From: a virus
Lineage: Duplodnaviria; Heunggongvirae; Uroviricota; Caudoviricetes
Reading direction: 5' to 3' (one strand)
IMG/VR virus record: IMGVR_UViG_2657244940_000005
Length of the DNA stretch: 14,144 bases
Within the stretch, counting starts at the first letter, position 1; the number at the start of each line of letters is the position of its first letter. The position numbers and the translations under genes were made by a program. Of the stretch, positions 2 to 8,535 are shown in pieces. The notes under the pieces are model-generated. The model worked only from the letters and a program-made list of their open reading frames with translations. It was not told the origin of the DNA and made no database searches.

Positions 2-181
2 GGCGTGGCGCGCGTGGTTGCTGCAATGCAAGACCCCAATCCGCAGGTCGCTGGACGTGGACTTTACCGTCTGCAACAGGCTGGCATTGACGTCAGCCAC
101 GGGCTGATGATGAGTGAAGCTGAGCAATTGAATAAAGGCTTTCTCAAGCGGATGCGCACCGGCTTTCTAATGCGAAAGTAA
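2..181 (+). pseudogene. ribD: 5'-and-3'-truncated fragment of a riboflavin-biosynthesis deaminase (RibD-like, CMP/dCMP deaminase domain)
   Basis: Frame 2 translates to [55 protein letters not shown], which I recognise as the deaminase-domain region of enterobacterial RibD. After RMRTGF (ending at 166) the frame reads LMRK and stops at 179-181, whereas intact RibD continues for about 220 more residues. Identification is from memory of the protein, not a search. Confidence 0.6.
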
Positions 182-440
182 GGCGCGCCGGAAGTGTGCC
201 GTTTGCCTTCTGCCCTGCCAGCAGCTGCGGCAGGATGCGTGTGCGGAACTTGGTCATACCGTTGAGCGCGATAGACAGCAGTTGATGCTTGATGTACGGG
301 TTACGGAAACGTCCGGTGACTGCACTGGCGAAAGACTCCAGCTCATCGCGTGGCAAATCCAGTACCGGAATAATATCTAGAAGAACGCCGGGCAAGGGCT
401 GAAGCAATGGCAGCTCGCCTTGATAGCCTGGCGTGTCATA
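168..440 (-). pseudogene. Internal fragment of an unplaced gene on the minus strand, inside six-frame ORF 144..503
   Basis: The middle of the 119-aa minus ORF (…[69 protein letters not shown]) has ordinary globular-protein composition. Its last 7 residues plus stop are just the reverse complement of the ribD fragment, and its first ~40 residues look non-protein-like. It feels like a sugar-acid or polyol dehydrogenase C-terminal region (possibly UxaB-like), but I cannot confirm that from memory. Boundaries are approximate. Confidence 0.3.
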
Positions 441-531
441 TAACATCCCGCCAGCTAAACCACGTCGAAGCGGCAGAACTGCTGCGTGTGAATGCTGAAG
501 CAATCCAGAACGAAGCGCAGGAGATCCACTG
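407..531 (+). CDS. Small hypothetical protein (41 aa), first visible gene of the rightward early operon
   Basis: ATG at 407 preceded by AAGGG; translates to [41 protein letters not shown]. Its TGA stop (529-531) abuts the ATG of the zinc-finger gene at 532 (TGATG). Below the ORF-track size cutoff. Its 5' part overlaps the minus ORF 144..503, so both cannot be real. Confidence 0.35.
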
Positions 532-759: not shown

Positions 760-1613
760 GCACCATCCTGAAATGGGCGGGAAATAAAACTGCCATTATG
801 TCCGAACTGAAAAAACACCTTCCTGCTGGCCCGCGACTGGTTGAACCTTTCGCGGGTTCCTGTGCTGTGATGATGGAGACGGATTACCCCAGCTATCTTG
901 TTGCGGATATTAATCCTGATTTAATCAACCTCTATAAAAAGGTTGCTGCTGATTGTGAGGCGTTTATATCTCGTGCCAGAGCTTTATTTGAGGAAGCAAA
1001 CAGGGAGGTGGCTTATTACAACATAAGGCAGGAGTTTAATTACTCCACTGAAATTACTGATTTCATGAAAGCGATATATTTTCTGTATCTCAATCGTCAT
1101 GGTTACCGTGGGTTATGTCGCTATAACAAGAGCGGGTATTTCAACATTCCCTACGGTAATTATAAAAATCCGTATTTCCCTGAAAAAGAAATTCGCGCAT
1201 TTGCAGAGAAAGCCCAGCGGGCAACGTTTATCTGCGCCAGCTTTGATGAAACGCTGGCGATGTTGAAGGCGGGGGATGTGGTGTATTGCGATCCGCCGTA
1301 TGACGGTACGTTTTCCGGCTATCACACTGATGGTTTCACTGAAGATGACCAGTATCACCTGGCATCCGTTCTTGAACATCGGTCATCAGAAGGACATCCG
1401 GTCATTGTTTCTAACAGTGACACATCCCTGATCCGTTCGCTGTATCGCAATTTTACTCACCACTACATCAAGGCAAAACGCAGCATCGGCGTAGCAGCTG
1501 GTGAGAGTAAATCTGCAACAGAAATCATCGCTGTTTCTGGGGCGCGCTGCTGGGTGGGATTTGATCCTTCGCGTGGCGTGGATAGTTCTGCCGTGTATGG
1601 AGTGCGTGCATGA
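756..1613 (+). CDS. dam: Dam-type N6-adenine DNA methyltransferase (D12 class)
   Basis: ATG at 756 with GGAGG 6 nt upstream; N-terminal SAM-binding motif ([11 protein letters not shown]) and catalytic DPPY motif ([12 protein letters not shown]) in the order typical of Dam-family enzymes. The six-frame ORF begins at 696, but the RBS-supported start is 756. The stop overlaps the A start (ATGA at 1610-1613). Confidence 0.9.
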
Positions 1614-4024
1614 GCCATGCTGATATGAACAACTGCAGCGGCTTTAACGAGGCCGCCGCAGCATTCTCATGGAACAGCCCGAAAAAGGCTATTAACCCTT
1701 ATCTGGACCCGGCGGAAGTTGCGCCGGTTTCTGCGCTTTCAAACCTGATCACTCTGTACGCTGCCGATAACGAGCAGGAACAACTGCGCCGCGAGGCACT
1801 GAGTGATCAGGTCTGGGAGCGTTATTTCTTTAATGCATCCCGTGATCCTGTCCAGCGCGAAATGGAGCAGGATAAGCTCATTAGCCGGGCAAAGCTGGCG
1901 CATGAGCAGCAGCGTTTTAATCCGGACATGGTCATACTGGCGGACGTTAACGCCCAGCCTTCCCATATCAGCAAGCCGCTGATGCAACGTATTGAATACT
2001 TCAGCAGCCTGGGCAGGCCAAAGGCTTATTCCCGCTATTTGCGTGAGACGATTAAGCCATGTCTGGAACGACTGGAGCATGTACGCGACAGTCAGCTATC
2101 CACTTCTTTTCGCTTTATGGCAAGCCATGAAGGGCTGGACGGCCTGCTGATCTTGCCTGAAATGAGTCAGGATCAGGTGAAACGCCTGTCTACTCTTGTC
2201 GCTGCGCATATGAGTATGTGTCTTGATGCCGCTTGTGGTGATTTGTATGCCACCGATGATGTTAAGCCAGAAGAAATCCGCAAGACATGGGAAAAGGTGG
2301 CAGCAGAAACCCTGCGACTGGATGTCATACCGCCTGCGTTTGAGCAACTCCGCCGGAAAAGAAACCGCCGTAAACCCGTACCCTATGAACTCATTCCGGG
2401 TTCGCTGGCGCGTATGTTGTGCGCCGACTGGTGGTATCGGAAATTGTGGAAGATGCGTTGTGAATGGCGGGAAGAGCAGTTGCGTGCTGTTTGCCTGGTC
2501 AGCAAAAAAGCATCTCCCTATGTCAGCTATGAAGCCGTGATGCATAAACGTGAGCAGCGCCGTAAGTCGCTGGAGTTTTTCCGTTCTCATGAACTGGTGA
2601 ACGAAGACGGCGACACGCTGGACATGGAGGATGTGGTAAACGCCAGCAGCAGCAACCCTGCGCATCGCCGCAATGAGATGATGGCCTGTGTTAAAGGTCT
2701 GGAGCTTATCGCGGAAATGCGCGGTGACTGCGCCGTTTTCTACACCATCACCTGTCCGTCACGTTTCCATTCCACGCTAAATAACGGCAGGCCCAACCCG
2801 ACCTGGACAAATGCGACGGTAAGACAAAGCAGTGATTATCTGGTCGGCATGTTTGCTGCATTTCGTAAGGCGATGCACAAAGCCGGATTGCGCTGGTATG
2901 GCGTGCGGGTGGCTGAGCCGCATCATGACGGCACAGTTCACTGGCACCTGTTGTGTTTCATGCGCAAAAAAGACCGCCGCGCCATTACTGCATTGTTGCG
3001 TAAGTTTGCTATCCGTGAAGACCGCGAGGAGCTGGGTAATAACACGGGGCCACGCTTTAAGTCTGAGCTGATAAACCCGCGCAAAGGAACGCCGACTAGC
3101 TACATCGCGAAATACATCAGTAAGAACATTGACGGGCGTGGTCTGGCTGGCGAGATCAGCAAGGAAACGGGTAAATCTCTGCGTGATAACGCTGAATACG
3201 TTAATGCCTGGGCGTCTCTGCATCGTGTTCAGCAATTCCGCTTCTTTGGCATTCCGGGGCGTCAGGCTTACCGTGAACTGCGATTGCTGGCTGGTCAGGC
3301 GGCAAGGCAACAGGGTGACAAAAAAGCAGGTGCGCCGGTACTGGATAACCCGCGCCTTGATGCCATTCTGGCTGCAGCTGATGCTGGTTGTTTTGCCACC
3401 TACATCATGAAGCAGGGCGGCGTACTGGTTCCCCGTAAATATCACCTCATCAGAACCGCTTATGAAATCAACGAAGAGCCGACCGCCTATGGCGATCACG
3501 GCATTCGTATTTATGGCATCTGGTCACCCATTGCAGAGGGTAAGATCTGCACTCATGCAGTGAAGTGGAAAATGGTTCGTAAGGCCGTTGACGTTCAGGA
3601 GGCGGCAGCCGACCAGGGCGCTTGCGCCCCTTGGACTCGTGGCAATAACTGTCCCCTTGCTGAAAATTTGAACCAACAAGGGAAAGACAAATCAGCTGAT
3701 GGGGATACCAGAACGGATATCACCCGCATGGATGACAAGGAGTTGCACGATTACCTGCACAGTATGAGCAAAAAAGAGCGCCGGGAACTGGCAGCAAGAT
3801 TACGCCTGGTTAAACCGAAACGGCGTAAAGACTACAAACAGCGAATTACAGAGTATCAGCGTCAGCAGCTCGTCTATGAACTGAAGTCCAGAGGATTTGA
3901 TGGCAGCGAGAAAGAGGTCAATTTGCTCCTTCGCGGCGGCAGTATTCCGTCAGGAGCAGGCCTGCGTATCTTCTATCGGAACCAGCGTTTGCAGGAAGAT
4001 GATCAGTGGCGGAACCTGTATTAA
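1610..4024 (+). CDS. A: Replication initiation endonuclease, P2 gpA family (rolling-circle HUH relaxase)
   Basis: 804 aa; HUH-type motif (VHWHLL) and paired active-site tyrosines ([14 protein letters not shown]) characteristic of P2 A / phiX174-type Rep proteins; GGAG 7 nt upstream of the ATG; position and size match P2 gene A (761 aa as I recall). Confidence 0.92.
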
Positions 4025-4177
4025 TTACGCGGGTTAACAATTCGTGCTATTAATAATACCAGGCATATCAGGCTGATGAACGTAAAAAAACGTTTTACAT
4101 CAGTAAGATTATTATATACTGTAAATATAAACAGTGGTTATACATATAGTATTGCGTGTGGTGTCATAGGAGGAAAG
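4025..4177 (+). promoter_or_regulatory. AT-rich intergenic region, putative promoter for the cargo genes
   Basis: Sharp drop in GC content immediately after the A stop (ttaattacgcgggttaacaattcgtgctattaataatacc…), a TTTACA hexamer at 4094-4099 and several TATA-like hexamers downstream. The exact -35/-10 pairing is not resolved by eye. Confidence 0.3.
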
Positions 4178-4366
4178 ATGCAGGACTATTTTTTGGAGTC
4201 TTTGAAGCTCCAGCGCATTGATTTTTTTCTTAAGCTTGTAGCGGCTAGTGAGTGTAGTGATGAAGAGAAGGGGCTGGCTCTGCAGTGGGTTTCTGAATTG
4301 ACTGATGAACTCATGGCAAAAATCAGAACCCACGAATACAACCGCTCAATGGATGTCATCAGCTGA
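4178..4366 (+). CDS. Hypothetical small protein (62 aa), probably helical, in the accessory locus
   Basis: ATG at 4178 with a perfect AGGAGG 4 nt upstream; MQDYFLESLKLQRIDFFLKLVAASECSDEEKGLALQWVSELTDELMAKIRTHEYNRSMDVIS. No family recognised. The longer six-frame ORF from 4076 lacks an RBS. Confidence 0.55.
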   Translation: MQDYFLESLKLQRIDFFLKLVAASECSDEEKGLALQWVSELTDELMAKIRTHEYNRSMDVIS

Positions 4367-4376
4367 GGTGACTTTT

Positions 4377-4610
4377 ATGCGCATTGAAATAATGATCGAT
4401 AAAGAGCAGAAGATTAGCCAGTCTACCCTGGACGCCCTTGAATCCGAGCTTTACCGCAATCTGCGCCCCCTGTATCCCAAAACGGTAATTCGCATTCGCA
4501 AAGGTAGCTCTAACGGTGTGGAACTAACCGGACTGCAACTGGACGAAGAAAGAAAACAAGTGATGAAAATTATGCAGAAGGTGTGGGAAGACGACAGCTG
4601 GCTGCATTAA
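4377..4610 (+). CDS. DinI-family protein (SOS/RecA-modulator-like)
   Basis: ATG at 4377 with GAGG upstream; MRIEIMIDKEQKISQSTLDALESELYRNLRPLYPKTVIRIRKGSS…KIMQKVWEDDSWLH resembles E. coli DinI (MRIEVTIAK…, acidic C-terminal helix with conserved W). Confidence 0.75.
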   Translation: MRIEIMIDKEQKISQSTLDALESELYRNLRPLYPKTVIRIRKGSSNGVELTGLQLDEERKQVMKIMQKVWEDDSWLH

Positions 4611-4991: not shown

Positions 4992-6047
4992 TCAGTCGTT
5001 GCGCTTGTCTTCTGTCAGTCCCAGCGTGTACGGCTCAAAGCGGATCACTTCTTCTCCAAGCCAGTCGTTAAGCTCCTGCAGTCGCTTCTGCAGCGGCATC
5101 AGCTCGTTGCGGACAAAGACGCGGCTGGCCTTTTCCACATCACCAAAGCCGCCGGTATTGTTGGGAATAATGCCCATCATCTGCGGCGGTACGCGGTGCG
5201 CTGCCATCATGTCATCGCGGCTCACGTTCTTGATGTTCAGAAACTCATCCTTTGCCGCAACCTCCGATAACGGGATGATCTGGATGCCGTCCTTTTTACC
5301 GTTGGGTGAGTACATAAACAGGTTACGGAAGTTGCCCGGCCCTTTGGCGCTTTTCATTGCCTGGCGGATATTGTTCACGTCCTCCTGATTCTGTGCTGCG
5401 TCGGTCATGTACATGATGAAACCCGCATGGCTGCCGTTGATGTAATACTTCCGGCGGAACAGCGTTGCGGACTCGTTGAGCAGGGTTGACGGGATGGCGG
5501 AGAGATAGCCGGGCAGCCCGTAAATCTCCTGGTTAATATCCGGCTCCAGCAGATGAAAGATGTTGCCCTGCGTAAATTCATAGGGCTGCGTGGTCAGGCC
5601 ATACTGCACAAACCAGTAGGTGTCGAGGTCCACGCCACGGCGTGTGTACTTCGCCAGTGCTGGCTCCAGTGAGAGAACGCCGCCGAGCCGGTTGGTGCGC
5701 TTTTCCAGATAGGCGTTACCGAACACCAGATAGTCCTGTACGAAACGGGCAAAAGCCTGCTGGCTGAGCAGGCGGTGCGGGATGTAGGTACTGCTGAGAA
5801 TGTCACGCTTAACGGCAATCGGTGAGCTGTGATGCACGGCGGCGCGATAGGTCCGCGCCAGTCCGTCAAAGCTCACCGGCGGCTCATACCAGCGGTCCAT
5901 CTGCACGCATTCCACGTAGTCCAGCAATTCGCGTCGGTCTAACACCGGCACCGGGTCGCCAAAGCTAAACGCCTCTGCCGCAGCGCCGCCAGATTCTGCG
6001 TTGTGATCCACCGCTGCGCGGTTGTTCTTGTTTTTACGTTTGCTCAT
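4992..6047 (-). CDS. Q: Portal protein, P2 gpQ family
   Basis: 351 aa, similar in size to P2 Q (344 aa), and positioned immediately downstream of the terminase ATPase region on the leftward strand. Its ATG overlaps the stop of the upstream gene (ATGA at 6044-6047). Confidence 0.9.
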   Translation of the reverse strand: MSKRKNKNNRAAVDHNAESGGAAAEAFSFGDPVPVLDRRELLDYVECVQMDRWYEPPVSFDGLARTYRAAVHHSSPIAVKRDILSSTYIPHRLLSQQAFARFVQDYLVFGNAYLEKRTNRLGGVLSLEPALAKYTRRGVDLDTYWFVQYGLTTQPYEFTQGNIFHLLEPDINQEIYGLPGYLSAIPSTLLNESATLFRRKYYINGSHAGFIMYMTDAAQNQEDVNNIRQAMKSAKGPGNFRNLFMYSPNGKKDGIQIIPLSEVAAKDEFLNIKNVSRDDMMAAHRVPPQMMGIIPNNTGGFGDVEKASRVFVRNELMPLQKRLQELNDWLGEEVIRFEPYTLGLTEDKRND

Positions 6048-6769
6048 GCCGCCTGCTCCTTGTCAGCCTGGGGCCATTCGCACATAAACAGCATTTTCCA
6101 GTCCTCCGGTGATAATTCTTTTTTCATGTCATTCAGCCATTCATCATCAAAGAGCGCGGCTCCGGTTGCGAGCGTAGCCCCGGATGCTGCAGCGTCATCA
6201 GCGGTAAAGGTCATGCAGGTAGTGCTGTTGCGGGCGATCAGATTCTTGTATTCCTGCCATGCTTCCGGGCTGGGGCTTGGGGTGGTGTAGTAGGTAGCGT
6301 GATAGCGCGCGTGCATGGACAGGCTTTTGGCGAGCGCAATCATATTTTTGGGGGAGTCAGCCCAGGCATACTCTGACACGTAGACGTTTCCATGGAGCGC
6401 GGCGGCGAGACTTTCCGGCCCGATAAAATAAATGACCGCACCGTTTGGGAGTTCCAGATGCGCTTTACCTGATTTTATTTTCCCAAGATGCGTCCAGGCT
6501 GCTGCCTCACTTAAAAAAGCTGATATATAGGTTTTGACGGTCAGGGCTGATGCCGGGGTGCAGCCCAGAAAAATCTGGTTGCGTCCGGTGTGCAGTGCAT
6601 CGTTCAGGGCTTCGTAGGCGAAAAAGAAATCCGCGCCAGCCTGACGCATTTTTGTAAGCACGCGGTTTCTGCTGCGTGCGCCACTGTTCCATTCATGCTG
6701 GTAAGCAAAGAAAGGGCGATCTACAGGCAGGCTGGCGGTGGTCATGAGGTTAGTTGGGGTTGAGTGCAT
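6044..6769 (-). CDS. Standalone terminase-ATPase-domain paralog (241 aa), an extra gene between P and Q
   Basis: Aligns over its whole length with the central ATPase core of the adjacent P protein: [50 protein letters not shown] against [55 protein letters not shown], HGN-Y-(D/S)EY-W, TPS, LFD and MCE(W/F) are conserved; by-eye identity is roughly a third. It lacks P's N-terminal ~135 aa and the entire C-terminal nuclease domain. Walker-B-like LYLDEY of P is VYVSEY here. The start overlaps the P stop (TGATG at 6767-6771) and the stop overlaps the Q start. Confidence 0.7.
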   Translation of the reverse strand: [241 protein letters not shown]

Positions 6770-8535
6770 CAGAAAATCTCCACAATGTTGCTGGTATTGG
6801 CGGCTTCGCCCTGCAGCGGTTCGTTAAACAGTGCGTGCATCGTTGCCCAGGCCAAATCTGCGTGGCTGGCTTCTTCGCTGCGGCTGGCTTCATAGGTAGG
6901 GCGGTTGCCGCTGGCTGTAGTGGCGCGACGGATAGCCATAAAGGATTGCGCAATGTCGGTGTGCCCGGCGTCAAACTCCAGACGGCGGTGGCTGATAATG
7001 TCGTATGCCTTGAGCACCAGTGCGTTTTTGACGTTGGGGTTGTAGACAAACTCCCGCACCGCAGGAAAGAACGCTTTCACGTTCTCGTAGACACCGTGAC
7101 CAACGCCGGTCGAGTCGATGCCGATATATGTCACGTTGTACTGCTGCGTCAGTTTTTTAATGGCATCAGCCTGGGCGCGGAAGTCCATTCCGCGCCACTG
7201 GTGACGCTCAAGAATGCGGAACTTACCACCTGGCACGGCTGGCGGTGCCACCACCACGCATCCGGCGCTGTCGCCGTTCTGCGTACCTTTTGCCGGGTCA
7301 TAACCGATCCACACTTCGCGCCAGCCAAACGGGCGCAGCGCCAGTGCATGAAAGTCGGTCCAGACTTCCCAGCTGTCTACCATGCACGCCTGCAGCTCGC
7401 TGAGCGGGAATACGGACGCGAGATCGTCCACGAACTCACACATCAGCAGATTCTGGTATTCGTCCGGGCTGTACTCCATGCGCAACTGGTCAAGGTCGAA
7501 CAGGTTACATCCGCCGCGCACCGCATCTTCCACAGTGACTATCTGGCGGTACTGCCCGTCTGCGCACAGCAGGCCGGGGGCCAGATTGCTGTGGGACAGG
7601 TCGATGTCCACCTTATCGGCTTTGTTGCGCCCTCGGTTGAACAGCGCACCGGACCAGAACGGATAAGCACTGTGTGTCAGGCTGGATGGCGTGGAAAAAT
7701 AGGTCTGTCGCCATTTTTTGTGAATAGCCATACCGGAAGCCACTTTGCGCAGCTCCTGGAATTTCGGTATCCAGAAATATTCATCCAGATACAGGTTGCC
7801 GTGGTAACTCTGGGCCGTGCGGGCATTGGTGCCGAGGAAGTAAAGCGTGGCCCCGTTAGGAAGCACCATCGGATCACCTTTCAGCTCCACCTCGACTTCA
7901 TTGGCGAAATCGATGATGTACTGCTTAAAGACGTGAGCCTGTGCCTTACTGGCAGAAAGGAAAATCTGGTTACGTCCGGTAAGCAGGGCGTCAATCAGGG
8001 CCTCACGGGCAAAATAGAAGGTCGCGCCGATCTGGCGTGACTTTAGCAGGTTGCGGATGCGGTTGGTTTTTCCGGCTTCCCACCAGTGGCGCTGGTAGTT
8101 AAACATGGAGGAATGGAAAATTTCTTCCAGCTTCTCAATTTGTTCATCGGTGAAAACATTCTTTTCCGGCTGACGGCGCGGGCCTTTGTTACGGTTGGCG
8201 ACGTTAGGGTTTAAGTCGGCTTCGTTGCCGCCATTGTTAAACTTGCCGATCCGCGCGTGGCGTTCCGACTGGCGCGCCAGCAGGTCAATTTCTTTGAAAT
8301 CTTTCCCTTCTTTGTGCTCCTTCATAATGAGCTGGCAGTAGCGTGCGGCGGTGGTGAGCTGCATCTGATCCAGCGGCCCATAGTCACCCCACTTGTCGCG
8401 TTTTTTCCAGCTGTGAACGGTTGCAACTTTCTCGCCCAGCATTTCAGCAATGCGGGCTACGCGGTATCCCTGAAAGTACAGCAGCATGGCCTGCCGACGG
8501 GGATCGAGATCTGCGGGTGTCAGTGTGGTGTTCAT
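6769..8535 (-). CDS. P: Terminase large (ATPase) subunit, P2 gpP family
   Basis: 588 aa versus 590 aa for P2 P; deviant Walker A of the lambda gpA type (LKSRQIGATF), Walker B (LYLDEY), and a C-terminal nuclease-domain-length extension. Confidence 0.92.
   Translation of the reverse strand: MNTTLTPADLDPRRQAMLLYFQGYRVARIAEMLGEKVATVHSWKKRDKWGDYGPLDQMQLTTAARYCQLIMKEHKEGKDFKEIDLLARQSERHARIGKFNNGGNEADLNPNVANRNKGPRRQPEKNVFTDEQIEKLEEIFHSSMFNYQRHWWEAGKTNRIRNLLKSRQIGATFYFAREALIDALLTGRNQIFLSASKAQAHVFKQYIIDFANEVEVELKGDPMVLPNGATLYFLGTNARTAQSYHGNLYLDEYFWIPKFQELRKVASGMAIHKKWRQTYFSTPSSLTHSAYPFWSGALFNRGRNKADKVDIDLSHSNLAPGLLCADGQYRQIVTVEDAVRGGCNLFDLDQLRMEYSPDEYQNLLMCEFVDDLASVFPLSELQACMVDSWEVWTDFHALALRPFGWREVWIGYDPAKGTQNGDSAGCVVVAPPAVPGGKFRILERHQWRGMDFRAQADAIKKLTQQYNVTYIGIDSTGVGHGVYENVKAFFPAVREFVYNPNVKNALVLKAYDIISHRRLEFDAGHTDIAQSFMAIRRATTASGNRPTYEASRSEEASHADLAWATMHALFNEPLQGEAANTSNIVEIF

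Follow-up and report, generated by a model that had tools for sequence, protein, structure and literature searches.

A W-type stand-alone ATPase domain of the large terminase subunit encoded between the terminase and portal genes of a P2-like phage

The genome record of coliphage 186 (U32222) contains a 248-aa coding sequence (CDS) at 1215..1961 (AAC34147), which lies between Orf12 ('P2 P homolog') and Orf2 ('P2 Q homolog') and was deposited as 'W protein' with the note 'similar to Orf12'. The W counterparts of phages PSP3 and EtG are annotated as 'similar to 186 W'. A gene in this slot, between the terminase gene P and the portal gene Q, has been annotated in the P2 family since 186 (1998), and W is a rare accessory gene of that family. 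Here, we analyze the W-like gene (hereafter W) carried by a 14,144-nucleotide stretch of DNA, the window, from a tailed phage of the class Caudoviricetes (IMG/VR record IMGVR_UViG_2657244940_000005). W is an uninterrupted open reading frame (ORF) of 241 aa at 6044..6769 on the minus strand, sandwiched between a P-like gene and a portal gene. It encodes a stand-alone ATPase domain of the large terminase subunit (TerL) and is a paralog of gpP, as established by BLASTP, Pfam, AlphaFold2 (AF2) modelling with Foldseek, and the ratio of nonsynonymous to synonymous substitution rates (dN/dS). An earlier note on this DNA had taken P and Q to be directly adjacent in 186 and had regarded a gene of this kind as undescribed in the P2 family. 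The 186 record contradicts the first claim, and the second falls with the deposited 186 W, the PSP3 and EtG annotations, and the name 'terminase large subunit domain-containing protein' that PGAP gives to the E. coli copies. What is new is that the window W is a derived, diverged member of the family, with a putatively rewired Mg2+ site. The large terminase is among the best-studied molecular motors and is a main target of bacterial innate immunity, and a conserved ATPase-only paralog of it has stood in the genome of a classical model phage since 1998 with no function in the literature searched.

The domain content of W was defined by sequence and fold comparison. BLASTP aligns W with P at 33% identity (E=1e-34), colinear solely with P residues 145-368, and the C-terminus of W coincides with the end of the P ATPase domain. 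In Pfam, W matches Terminase_6N (PF03237) over residues 42-232 with 54.9 bits against a curated cut-off of 22. The same search found in W neither Terminase_5, the N-terminal gpP-type helix-turn-helix (HTH), nor Terminase_6C, the RNase H-like nuclease, and P carries both. Because the nuclease domain is missing, W is predicted to be unable to cut DNA. The AF2 model of W, built on 26 homologs, has a pLDDT of 80.6 and a pTM of 0.81. All 28 of its best Foldseek matches in the PDB are TerL ATPase domains (E down to 1e-7), headed by the T4 gp17 ATPase and the TerL proteins of P74-26, D6E, Sf6, and HK97, and its matches in BFVD are terminases exclusively. The model also superposes on the PhiV-1 terminase chain in the Avs3 complex 8dgc_E with a query-normalised TM-score of 0.64. 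A PDB sequence search using the W family profile returned nothing significant, and fold comparison alone gave matches. NCBIfam gave no match to W, and no curated model in Pfam, NCBIfam, or PHROG divides W from P. PHROG 3746 was considered as a dedicated W family and rejected, as it is matched by W (3e-93) and 186 W (5e-122) and better still by P (1e-160). The earlier note had described the product as an old paralog, not a recent duplication, that covers the ATPase core of P only, at roughly a third identity, without the nuclease or the N-terminal region. The significant BLASTP alignment, the presence of Terminase_6N alone, and the superposition on TerL ATPase folds bear this description out. 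W is a real, selected, stand-alone TerL ATPase domain and an old diverged copy of the P core.

The gpP proteins of P2, 186, and Fels-2 share with W the homologous ATPase core (33% identity), a deviant Walker A with the lysine at its front, the YQ motif, the catalytic Glu, and the C-motif. Unlike gpP, W is without the Terminase_5 HTH and the Terminase_6C nuclease, has its Mg-site residues swapped, and evolves several-fold faster.

W is set tightly into the late operon. Upstream lies the gene for the gpP-like large subunit (6769..8535, minus strand), a protein of 588 aa in which Pfam identifies HTH (Terminase_5), ATPase (Terminase_6N), and nuclease (Terminase_6C) domains. Downstream lies the gene for the gpQ-like portal of 351 aa (4992..6047, minus strand; Pfam Phage_portal). 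The window P is 97.3% identical to Fels-2 gpP and the window Q is 84.9% identical to Fels-2 gpQ. At the P/W junction, TGATG, the W ATG (6769-6767) and the P TGA have base 6769 in common, and at the W/Q junction, ATGA, the W TGA (6046-6044) overlaps the portal ATG (6047-6045). The ORF, its translation, and these junctions agree with the extra gene and the overlaps that had been described from the sequence. The junction sequences contain a GGAG Shine-Dalgarno element for W (6778..6781, minus strand), located 8 nt 5' of the W start within the last P codons; in Fels-2, which is without W, the identical GGAG serves Q instead. The Shine-Dalgarno element for Q, AAGGAG (6056..6061, minus strand), is located 8 nt 5' of the Q start in the C-terminal codons of W (..DKEQAA*), in both the window and the 186 junctions. 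The C-terminal tail of W is conserved in the alignment because this element is encoded there. W is co-transcribed with the terminase and the portal on the late P-W-Q message, and the placement of the gene implies that it would also be translationally coupled within P-W-Q. No promoter signal above chance was found upstream of W, and its GC content is that of the flanking genes; a promoter of its own and a moron-like composition were considered and rejected on these two counts.

The window gene is, with good support, a Fels-2-group member of the family typified by the coliphage 186 W protein. The two genes occupy the same P/Q slot on the same strand with overlapping stop and start codons, fall in the same size class (248 vs 241 aa), encode the P ATPase domain only, belong to the same clade of the tree, and have Q junctions that are alike at the nucleotide level. 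They differ in that the proteins are only ~32% identical and that 186 W keeps KSRQIGAT and VYLDEF where the window protein has KMRQAGAD and VYVSEY. A segment of ~25 residues after the C-motif, present in 186 W and in P, is missing from the window clade. The Yersinia enterocolitica phages vB_YenM_56.17 and 201.16 carry a 254-aa version of W. The vB_YenM_56.17 protein (gp20) and related Yersinia and Limnobaculum prophage genes resemble the window W in the P-W-Q slot, the ...GAD Walker A ending, and a Walker B with GE or SE, but they retain the 186-like insertion after the C-motif and are 37-39% identical to the window protein. In the isolated Felsduovirus vB_YpM_MLG42 (PP599993), the W copy carries the annotation 'hypothetical protein' and shares 94.6% identity with that of the window. 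The literature retrieved on the genetics of 186 gene W, on MLG42, and on the Yersinia phages contained nothing about the W gene. In a 2026 survey of 5,945 P2-like genomes the word 'paralog' is absent, and the passages retrieved from it do not mention W.

A homolog search returned 55 clusters of 220-254 aa, down to 34% identity, from Citrobacter, Salmonella, Escherichia, Klebsiella, Leclercia, Phytobacter, Pantoea, Yersinia, Limnobaculum, and Buttiauxella. The order P-W-Q with overlapping stop and start codons was found in every look-up of window-type and 186-type lineages, and likewise, overlaps included, in 9/9 matches among one-genome-per-species bacterial genomes. A mis-assembly at P-W-Q is excluded, as the order recurs in complete E. 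coli chromosomes, in the isolated phage MLG42, and in those nine species-representative genomes. In a neighbor-joining (NJ) tree of the shared region for the enterobacterial set, the 16 short proteins, 186 W and the window protein included, form one clade with 100% bootstrap, and the 14 P ATPase domains fall outside it; the W branches are several times longer, so that the clade carries a long-branch caveat.

The nucleotide-binding site of W is conserved as a set and altered at two positions. The deviant Walker A, K40-M-R-Q-A-G-A-D47 (6629..6652, minus strand), has a modelled strand at residues 35-40 and a modelled helix from residue 46. The Walker B strand N-V-Y-V-S132-E133 (6371..6388, minus strand; modelled strand 128-131) has Ser for the Mg-site Asp and keeps the catalytic Glu. 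The C (coupling) motif T159-Y-Y-T-T-P-S165 (6275..6295, minus strand) aligns with STPS of P, and Y23-Q24 (6698..6703, minus strand) aligns with YQ of P, the motif that binds adenine in T4 gp17. Among 26 W homologs, residues Q24, K40, R42, Q43, G45, A46, D47, E133, T159, T162, and S165 are invariant, and conservation of Y23 reaches at least 90%. The residue at position 132 is Ser, except in the Yersinia clade, which has Gly. The W alignment has 33 invariant columns with homologs down to 34% identity. From P to W, Walker A changes from KSRQIGAT to KMRQAGAD (Thr to Asp47) and Walker B from LYLDEY to VYVSEY. The earlier note had quoted these motifs, the kept Walker A lysine and arginine, and the DE to SE change correctly but had overlooked the Thr to Asp47 exchange at the last Walker A residue.

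The two exchanges go together across the family. In a tally of 133 representatives, clustered at 50% identity and taken from an exhaustive profile search, Walker A Asp was paired with a non-acidic Walker B residue (S, G, P, A, or L) in 20 and with Walker B Asp in a single, poorly aligned case, while Walker A Thr/Ser was paired with Walker B Asp in 102 and with another residue in 8 (Fisher p = 3e-16, uncorrected for shared ancestry). All of the full-length TerLs (69/69) have T/S, D, and E, and Asp47 of W takes their Thr/Ser position. The Walker A Ser/Thr of P-loop NTPases is a hydrogen-bonded neighbor of the Walker B Asp in the Mg2+ shell. Because the paired exchange of T to D and D to S joins these neighbors and the other catalytic residues are invariant, the pattern reads most simply as a carboxylate that may have moved from Walker B to Walker A, with catalysis possibly retained. 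Impaired hydrolysis, raised in the earlier note, is therefore one of two readings: the Walker B Asp is indeed lost, but the pairing with T to D and the invariant catalytic residues fit a relocated carboxylate equally. The coupled exchange, found in most members of the W family, is a natural experiment on P-loop chemistry. The W proteins of PSP3 (L006 2935-3681) and 186, otherwise 91% identical, differ at the catalytic Glu, where PSP3 has VYLDDF, with Asp, and 186 has VYLDEF.

W is under purifying selection that is looser than that on P or Q: dN/dS is 0.13-0.25 for W, 0.01-0.11 for P, and 0.01-0.10 for Q. This bears on the possibility, highly improbable, that W is a functionless, decaying relic of a tandem duplication. 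Such an origin would suit a partial copy of the adjoining gene, and W is frameshifted in one record, that of Escherichia phage 500465-1, but there the portal is split too and a sequencing error is likely. Dozens of lineages, down to 34% identity, keep the frame open, 33 alignment columns are invariant, and the AF2 model is a confident one. A relic is effectively refuted by these data on selection and conservation. In the 500465-1 record (L001 6682-8439, NC_049342), the W homolog and the portal are both split or truncated CDSs, P and the W fragment are both labelled 'terminase large subunit', and the early region holds IS100 fragments; the record probably reflects frameshift errors or a degraded prophage.

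The gene is rare even among close relatives of its host phage. The window's P type is present in 1,228/5,426 complete E. coli genomes, a window-type W in 21, and a 186-type W in 8; ~98% of the E. coli prophages with this P type are without W. Window-type W occurs in 3/50,697 phage records. W, although annotated, is therefore not a standard component of most P2-like operons, in keeping with what had been supposed from the sequence. Fels-2 has P and Q adjacent and no W, despite a P 97.3% identical to that of the window, and the plaque-forming Eganvirus MHG75 has no W, with a P 98.8% identical to 186 P. Because these phages do without W despite near-identical P, W is dispensable, an accessory and not a core gene.

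The same siblings bear on the notion that W is an essential head gene, an obligatory third component of the terminase wherever it is carried. In 186 genetics, W is a gene defined by conditional-lethal mutants, and the 186 depositors gave that classical gene name to AAC34147. The strict placement and coupling between P and Q across divergent enterobacterial lineages and the strong purifying selection at the W active site would also fit. Set against this are the viable W-less siblings of both 186 and the window and the large majority of E. coli prophages with the same P type and no W, and lethality of W amber mutants could be a polar effect on the translationally coupled portal gene. An obligatory role accordingly has only a small chance of being right.

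Synonymous divergence (dS) points to a history of W that is separate from that of P. For P, dS is 0.23 between the window and E. coli FORC_081 and 0.49 between the window and MLG42; the corresponding values for W are 0.74 and 0.13. This discordance between P and W places a recombination breakpoint at the P stop and W start, and implies that W is exchanged by recombination independently of P. The left breakpoint is the P stop codon and the right breakpoint lies within the first ~25 Q codons. In the comparisons of 6044-8535 with L020, L002, and L021, W moves together with the 5' end of Q; the window shares a near-identical P with FORC_081 but differs from it by 25% in W, and against MLG42 and ET650 the situation is reversed. 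The first ~25 residues of Q differ between siblings with W and siblings without it (Fels-2, MHG75). Co-adaptation of the Q N-terminus to W was considered and rejected, since the W-less phages P2 and phiCTX have the MSK(R/K)K start of the type found with W; the difference is assigned to the recombination breakpoint.

The reading that we favor, although it falls somewhat short of an even chance, is that the gene is a 186 W-type copy of the gpP ATPase domain and that its product is an accessory ATPase on the packaging motor. The well-supported part of this reading is the identity: W arose by partial duplication of the ATPase domain of a P2-type gpP and forms a small cassette inserted between the P and Q genes. 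In the model, the protein would fold as a TerL ATPase domain and keep ATP binding. Its Mg2+ site would be rewired, with Asp47, at the Walker A Ser/Thr position, supplying the carboxylate in place of the Walker B Asp, and with Glu133, Lys40, Arg42, Gln43, and the C-motif retained. W would then most likely join the ATPase assembly that gpP forms at the portal, acting there as an auxiliary or modulating subunit, and would improve packaging under some conditions, plaque formation being possible without it. TerL N-termini dock the small subunit (TerS) in other phages. The gpP ATPase assembly and the portal are proposed as partners because the ATPase domain is the only TerL-type surface left in W. 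Taken by itself, the mechanistic part of this reading, in which W assists or modulates the packaging motor of its own phage as an ATPase, is possible but doubtful.

Several observations weigh against a motor accessory with a working, rewired site. The motor-subunit role is argued from domain content and operon position. The W site may instead bind ATP and yet be inactive: any of S, G, P, A, and L can stand at the Walker B position, which suits a relocated carboxylate and also a dead site. The catalytic Glu is lost in some distant relatives, namely P0142 (DH), which occupies the P-W-Q slot, P0153 (DN), and P0189 (DQ); ATP hydrolysis is therefore not universally needed. The single clade of the enterobacterial set also weakens with sampling, as in a wider set with distant metagenomic members the monophyly of all short proteins has 9.5% bootstrap. 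Two metagenomic W-like proteins encoded in P-W-Q order, with motifs that are canonical or degenerate (L023 5001-5747 and L024 5001-5699), score best against their own P (259 vs <=243 bits and 160 vs <=120 bits). A single origin for all short TerL-ATPase proteins was considered and is not robust on these two counts. Because of the best scores against the own P and the low bootstrap, partial duplication may have occurred more than once, or W and P may have undergone gene conversion. In the L024 copy, the catalytic Glu is replaced by His. Finally, the rarity, patchiness, fast evolution, and P-independent recombination of W, together with the subgroup in the hotspot after gene A described below, resemble those of an accessory gene involved in conflict more than those of a motor part.

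That subgroup (P0093, P0098, P0104, P0120) carries the Asp/non-acidic signature and forms a clade with 99.5% bootstrap that is nested among the Asp-type W proteins. In the P0104 and P0120 contigs, the W-like gene follows the replication gene A in the same orientation, and P and Q are adjacent; it overlaps the end of A in one contig and is one small ORF away in the other. These proteins have the same domain as the window W, with Walker A Asp and a non-acidic Walker B, but unlike it they are encoded at the end of the early operon, within the gpA-gpQ hotspot. The genes of this subgroup at L025 7001-7750 and L026 7001-7738, in other P2-like prophages, have Walker A Asp and Walker B Ser or Pro. The interval from gpA to gpQ is a defence hotspot of P2-like phages (PMC9122126). 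In the window, this interval (4076-4610) is nearly empty: its contents are a DinI-like gene and a 96-aa ORF that matches no family, and a recognisable defence system is absent.

Such features invite an explanation in terms of conflict, in which W is a mimic or decoy of the TerL ATPase face, nucleotide site included, that soaks up or blocks TerL-recognising factors, sparing the real terminase or averting abortive infection. The factors could be sensors of the Avs1-3 type, which fire on binding of the large terminase, or terminase inhibitors from prophages or satellites. This explanation, unlikely on the whole, suits the population signature of W and the early-operon subgroup better than a motor accessory does. 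W is rare, patchy, dispensable, exchanged apart from P, and has a dN/dS several-fold above that of P and Q, as conflict genes do; it possibly arose more than once; and the sister subgroup in the hotspot at the end of the early operon (PMC9122126) would be made before TerL. The active-site residues are conserved while the rest drifts, as expected if a conserved TerL surface must be imitated, and the superposition on the PhiV-1 terminase of the Avs3 complex points the same way. A prophage system that targets the terminase, TERi, is known in Listeria (bioRxiv 10.1101/2025.02.27.640495). On the other side, the window W is made with P and not before it, at a similar level, and an ATPase-only fragment could equally trigger a TerL sensor. 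Gao et al. are said to have found in 2022 that Avs3 reads both TerL domains. A PADLOC scan of W gave 0 families at E<=1, in a database that covers defence and not anti-defence models. TERi (TerI) is comparable to W by analogy only, in that a prophage encodes it and its action falls on the terminase or packaging step; the small protein is unrelated to W, is expressed in lysogeny, and has dedicated self-immunity proteins. In a broader version, which we consider distinctly unlikely, W-type proteins would be recurrently evolved terminase mimics, made late with TerL or early after A, that serve as decoys or shields against sensors or rival inhibitors, and the rewiring to Walker A Asp and Walker B Ser would tune nucleotide occupancy. 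If the mimic reading were true, W would represent a new class of anti-defence proteins derived from the very protein that immunity detects.

Interference or exclusion, a role proposed for the gene in the earlier note, would have W, as a subunit without a nuclease and possibly impaired in hydrolysis, poison terminase rings, whether those of P2-like phages in a co-infection or those of satellites that rely on the helper terminase. An ATPase-only protein has the make-up of a dominant-negative subunit, an accessory gene that evolves fast and is patchily distributed is as expected for such a role, and the catalytic Glu is lost in some relatives. However, W would be blind to self versus rival. P is 97-99.8% identical in phages with no W and in prophages with a ~25%-different W, and a poison would therefore strike the phage's own motor, which weakens the proposal. 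Satellites of the P4 type use the helper's own terminase (PMC9122126), so that poisoning would harm the helper. Exclusion genes are usually expressed by the resting prophage; W, which lies in the late operon and lacks its own promoter, is not. The catalytic residues are also invariant in the subfamily of the window. Poisoning is thus improbable. W is dispensable, rare, and mobile, and the motor accessory, the decoy, and the poison make distinct predictions in the tractable phages 186, MLG42, and Fels-2. Should W prove ordinary, an annotation lesson would still follow, as the W genes now carry the label 'terminase large subunit' and do not encode one.

MLG42 is the sole isolated phage with a window-type W, and its genome is just 31.2 kb. 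Its head was reported as 128 nm and its tail as 234 nm, against ~60-70 nm and 136-158 nm for W-less Eganvirus isolates of the same study (PMC11126057). The large reported particle size is probably a scale or measurement issue.

The remaining observations concern other parts of the window. A 428-codon ORF at 6754-8040 on the plus strand runs antisense through the P gene; most likely it is no gene and merely reflects codon and GC bias. The left end of the window is a patchwork: bases 2-172 on the plus strand are an internal RibD fragment (profile positions 92-146 of 367), and within an ORF at 144..503 on the minus strand lies part of the interior of a gene like that for tagaturonate reductase (UxaB). 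At 376 the sequence changes abruptly to that of a prophage early region (DUF2732, TraR/DksA). In E. coli genomes, the first 700 bases of the window give at most three separate matches per record; the listed records have three, and the median per genome is two. Positions 1-375 look like a chimeric contig end or a rearrangement, which leaves P-W-Q untouched.

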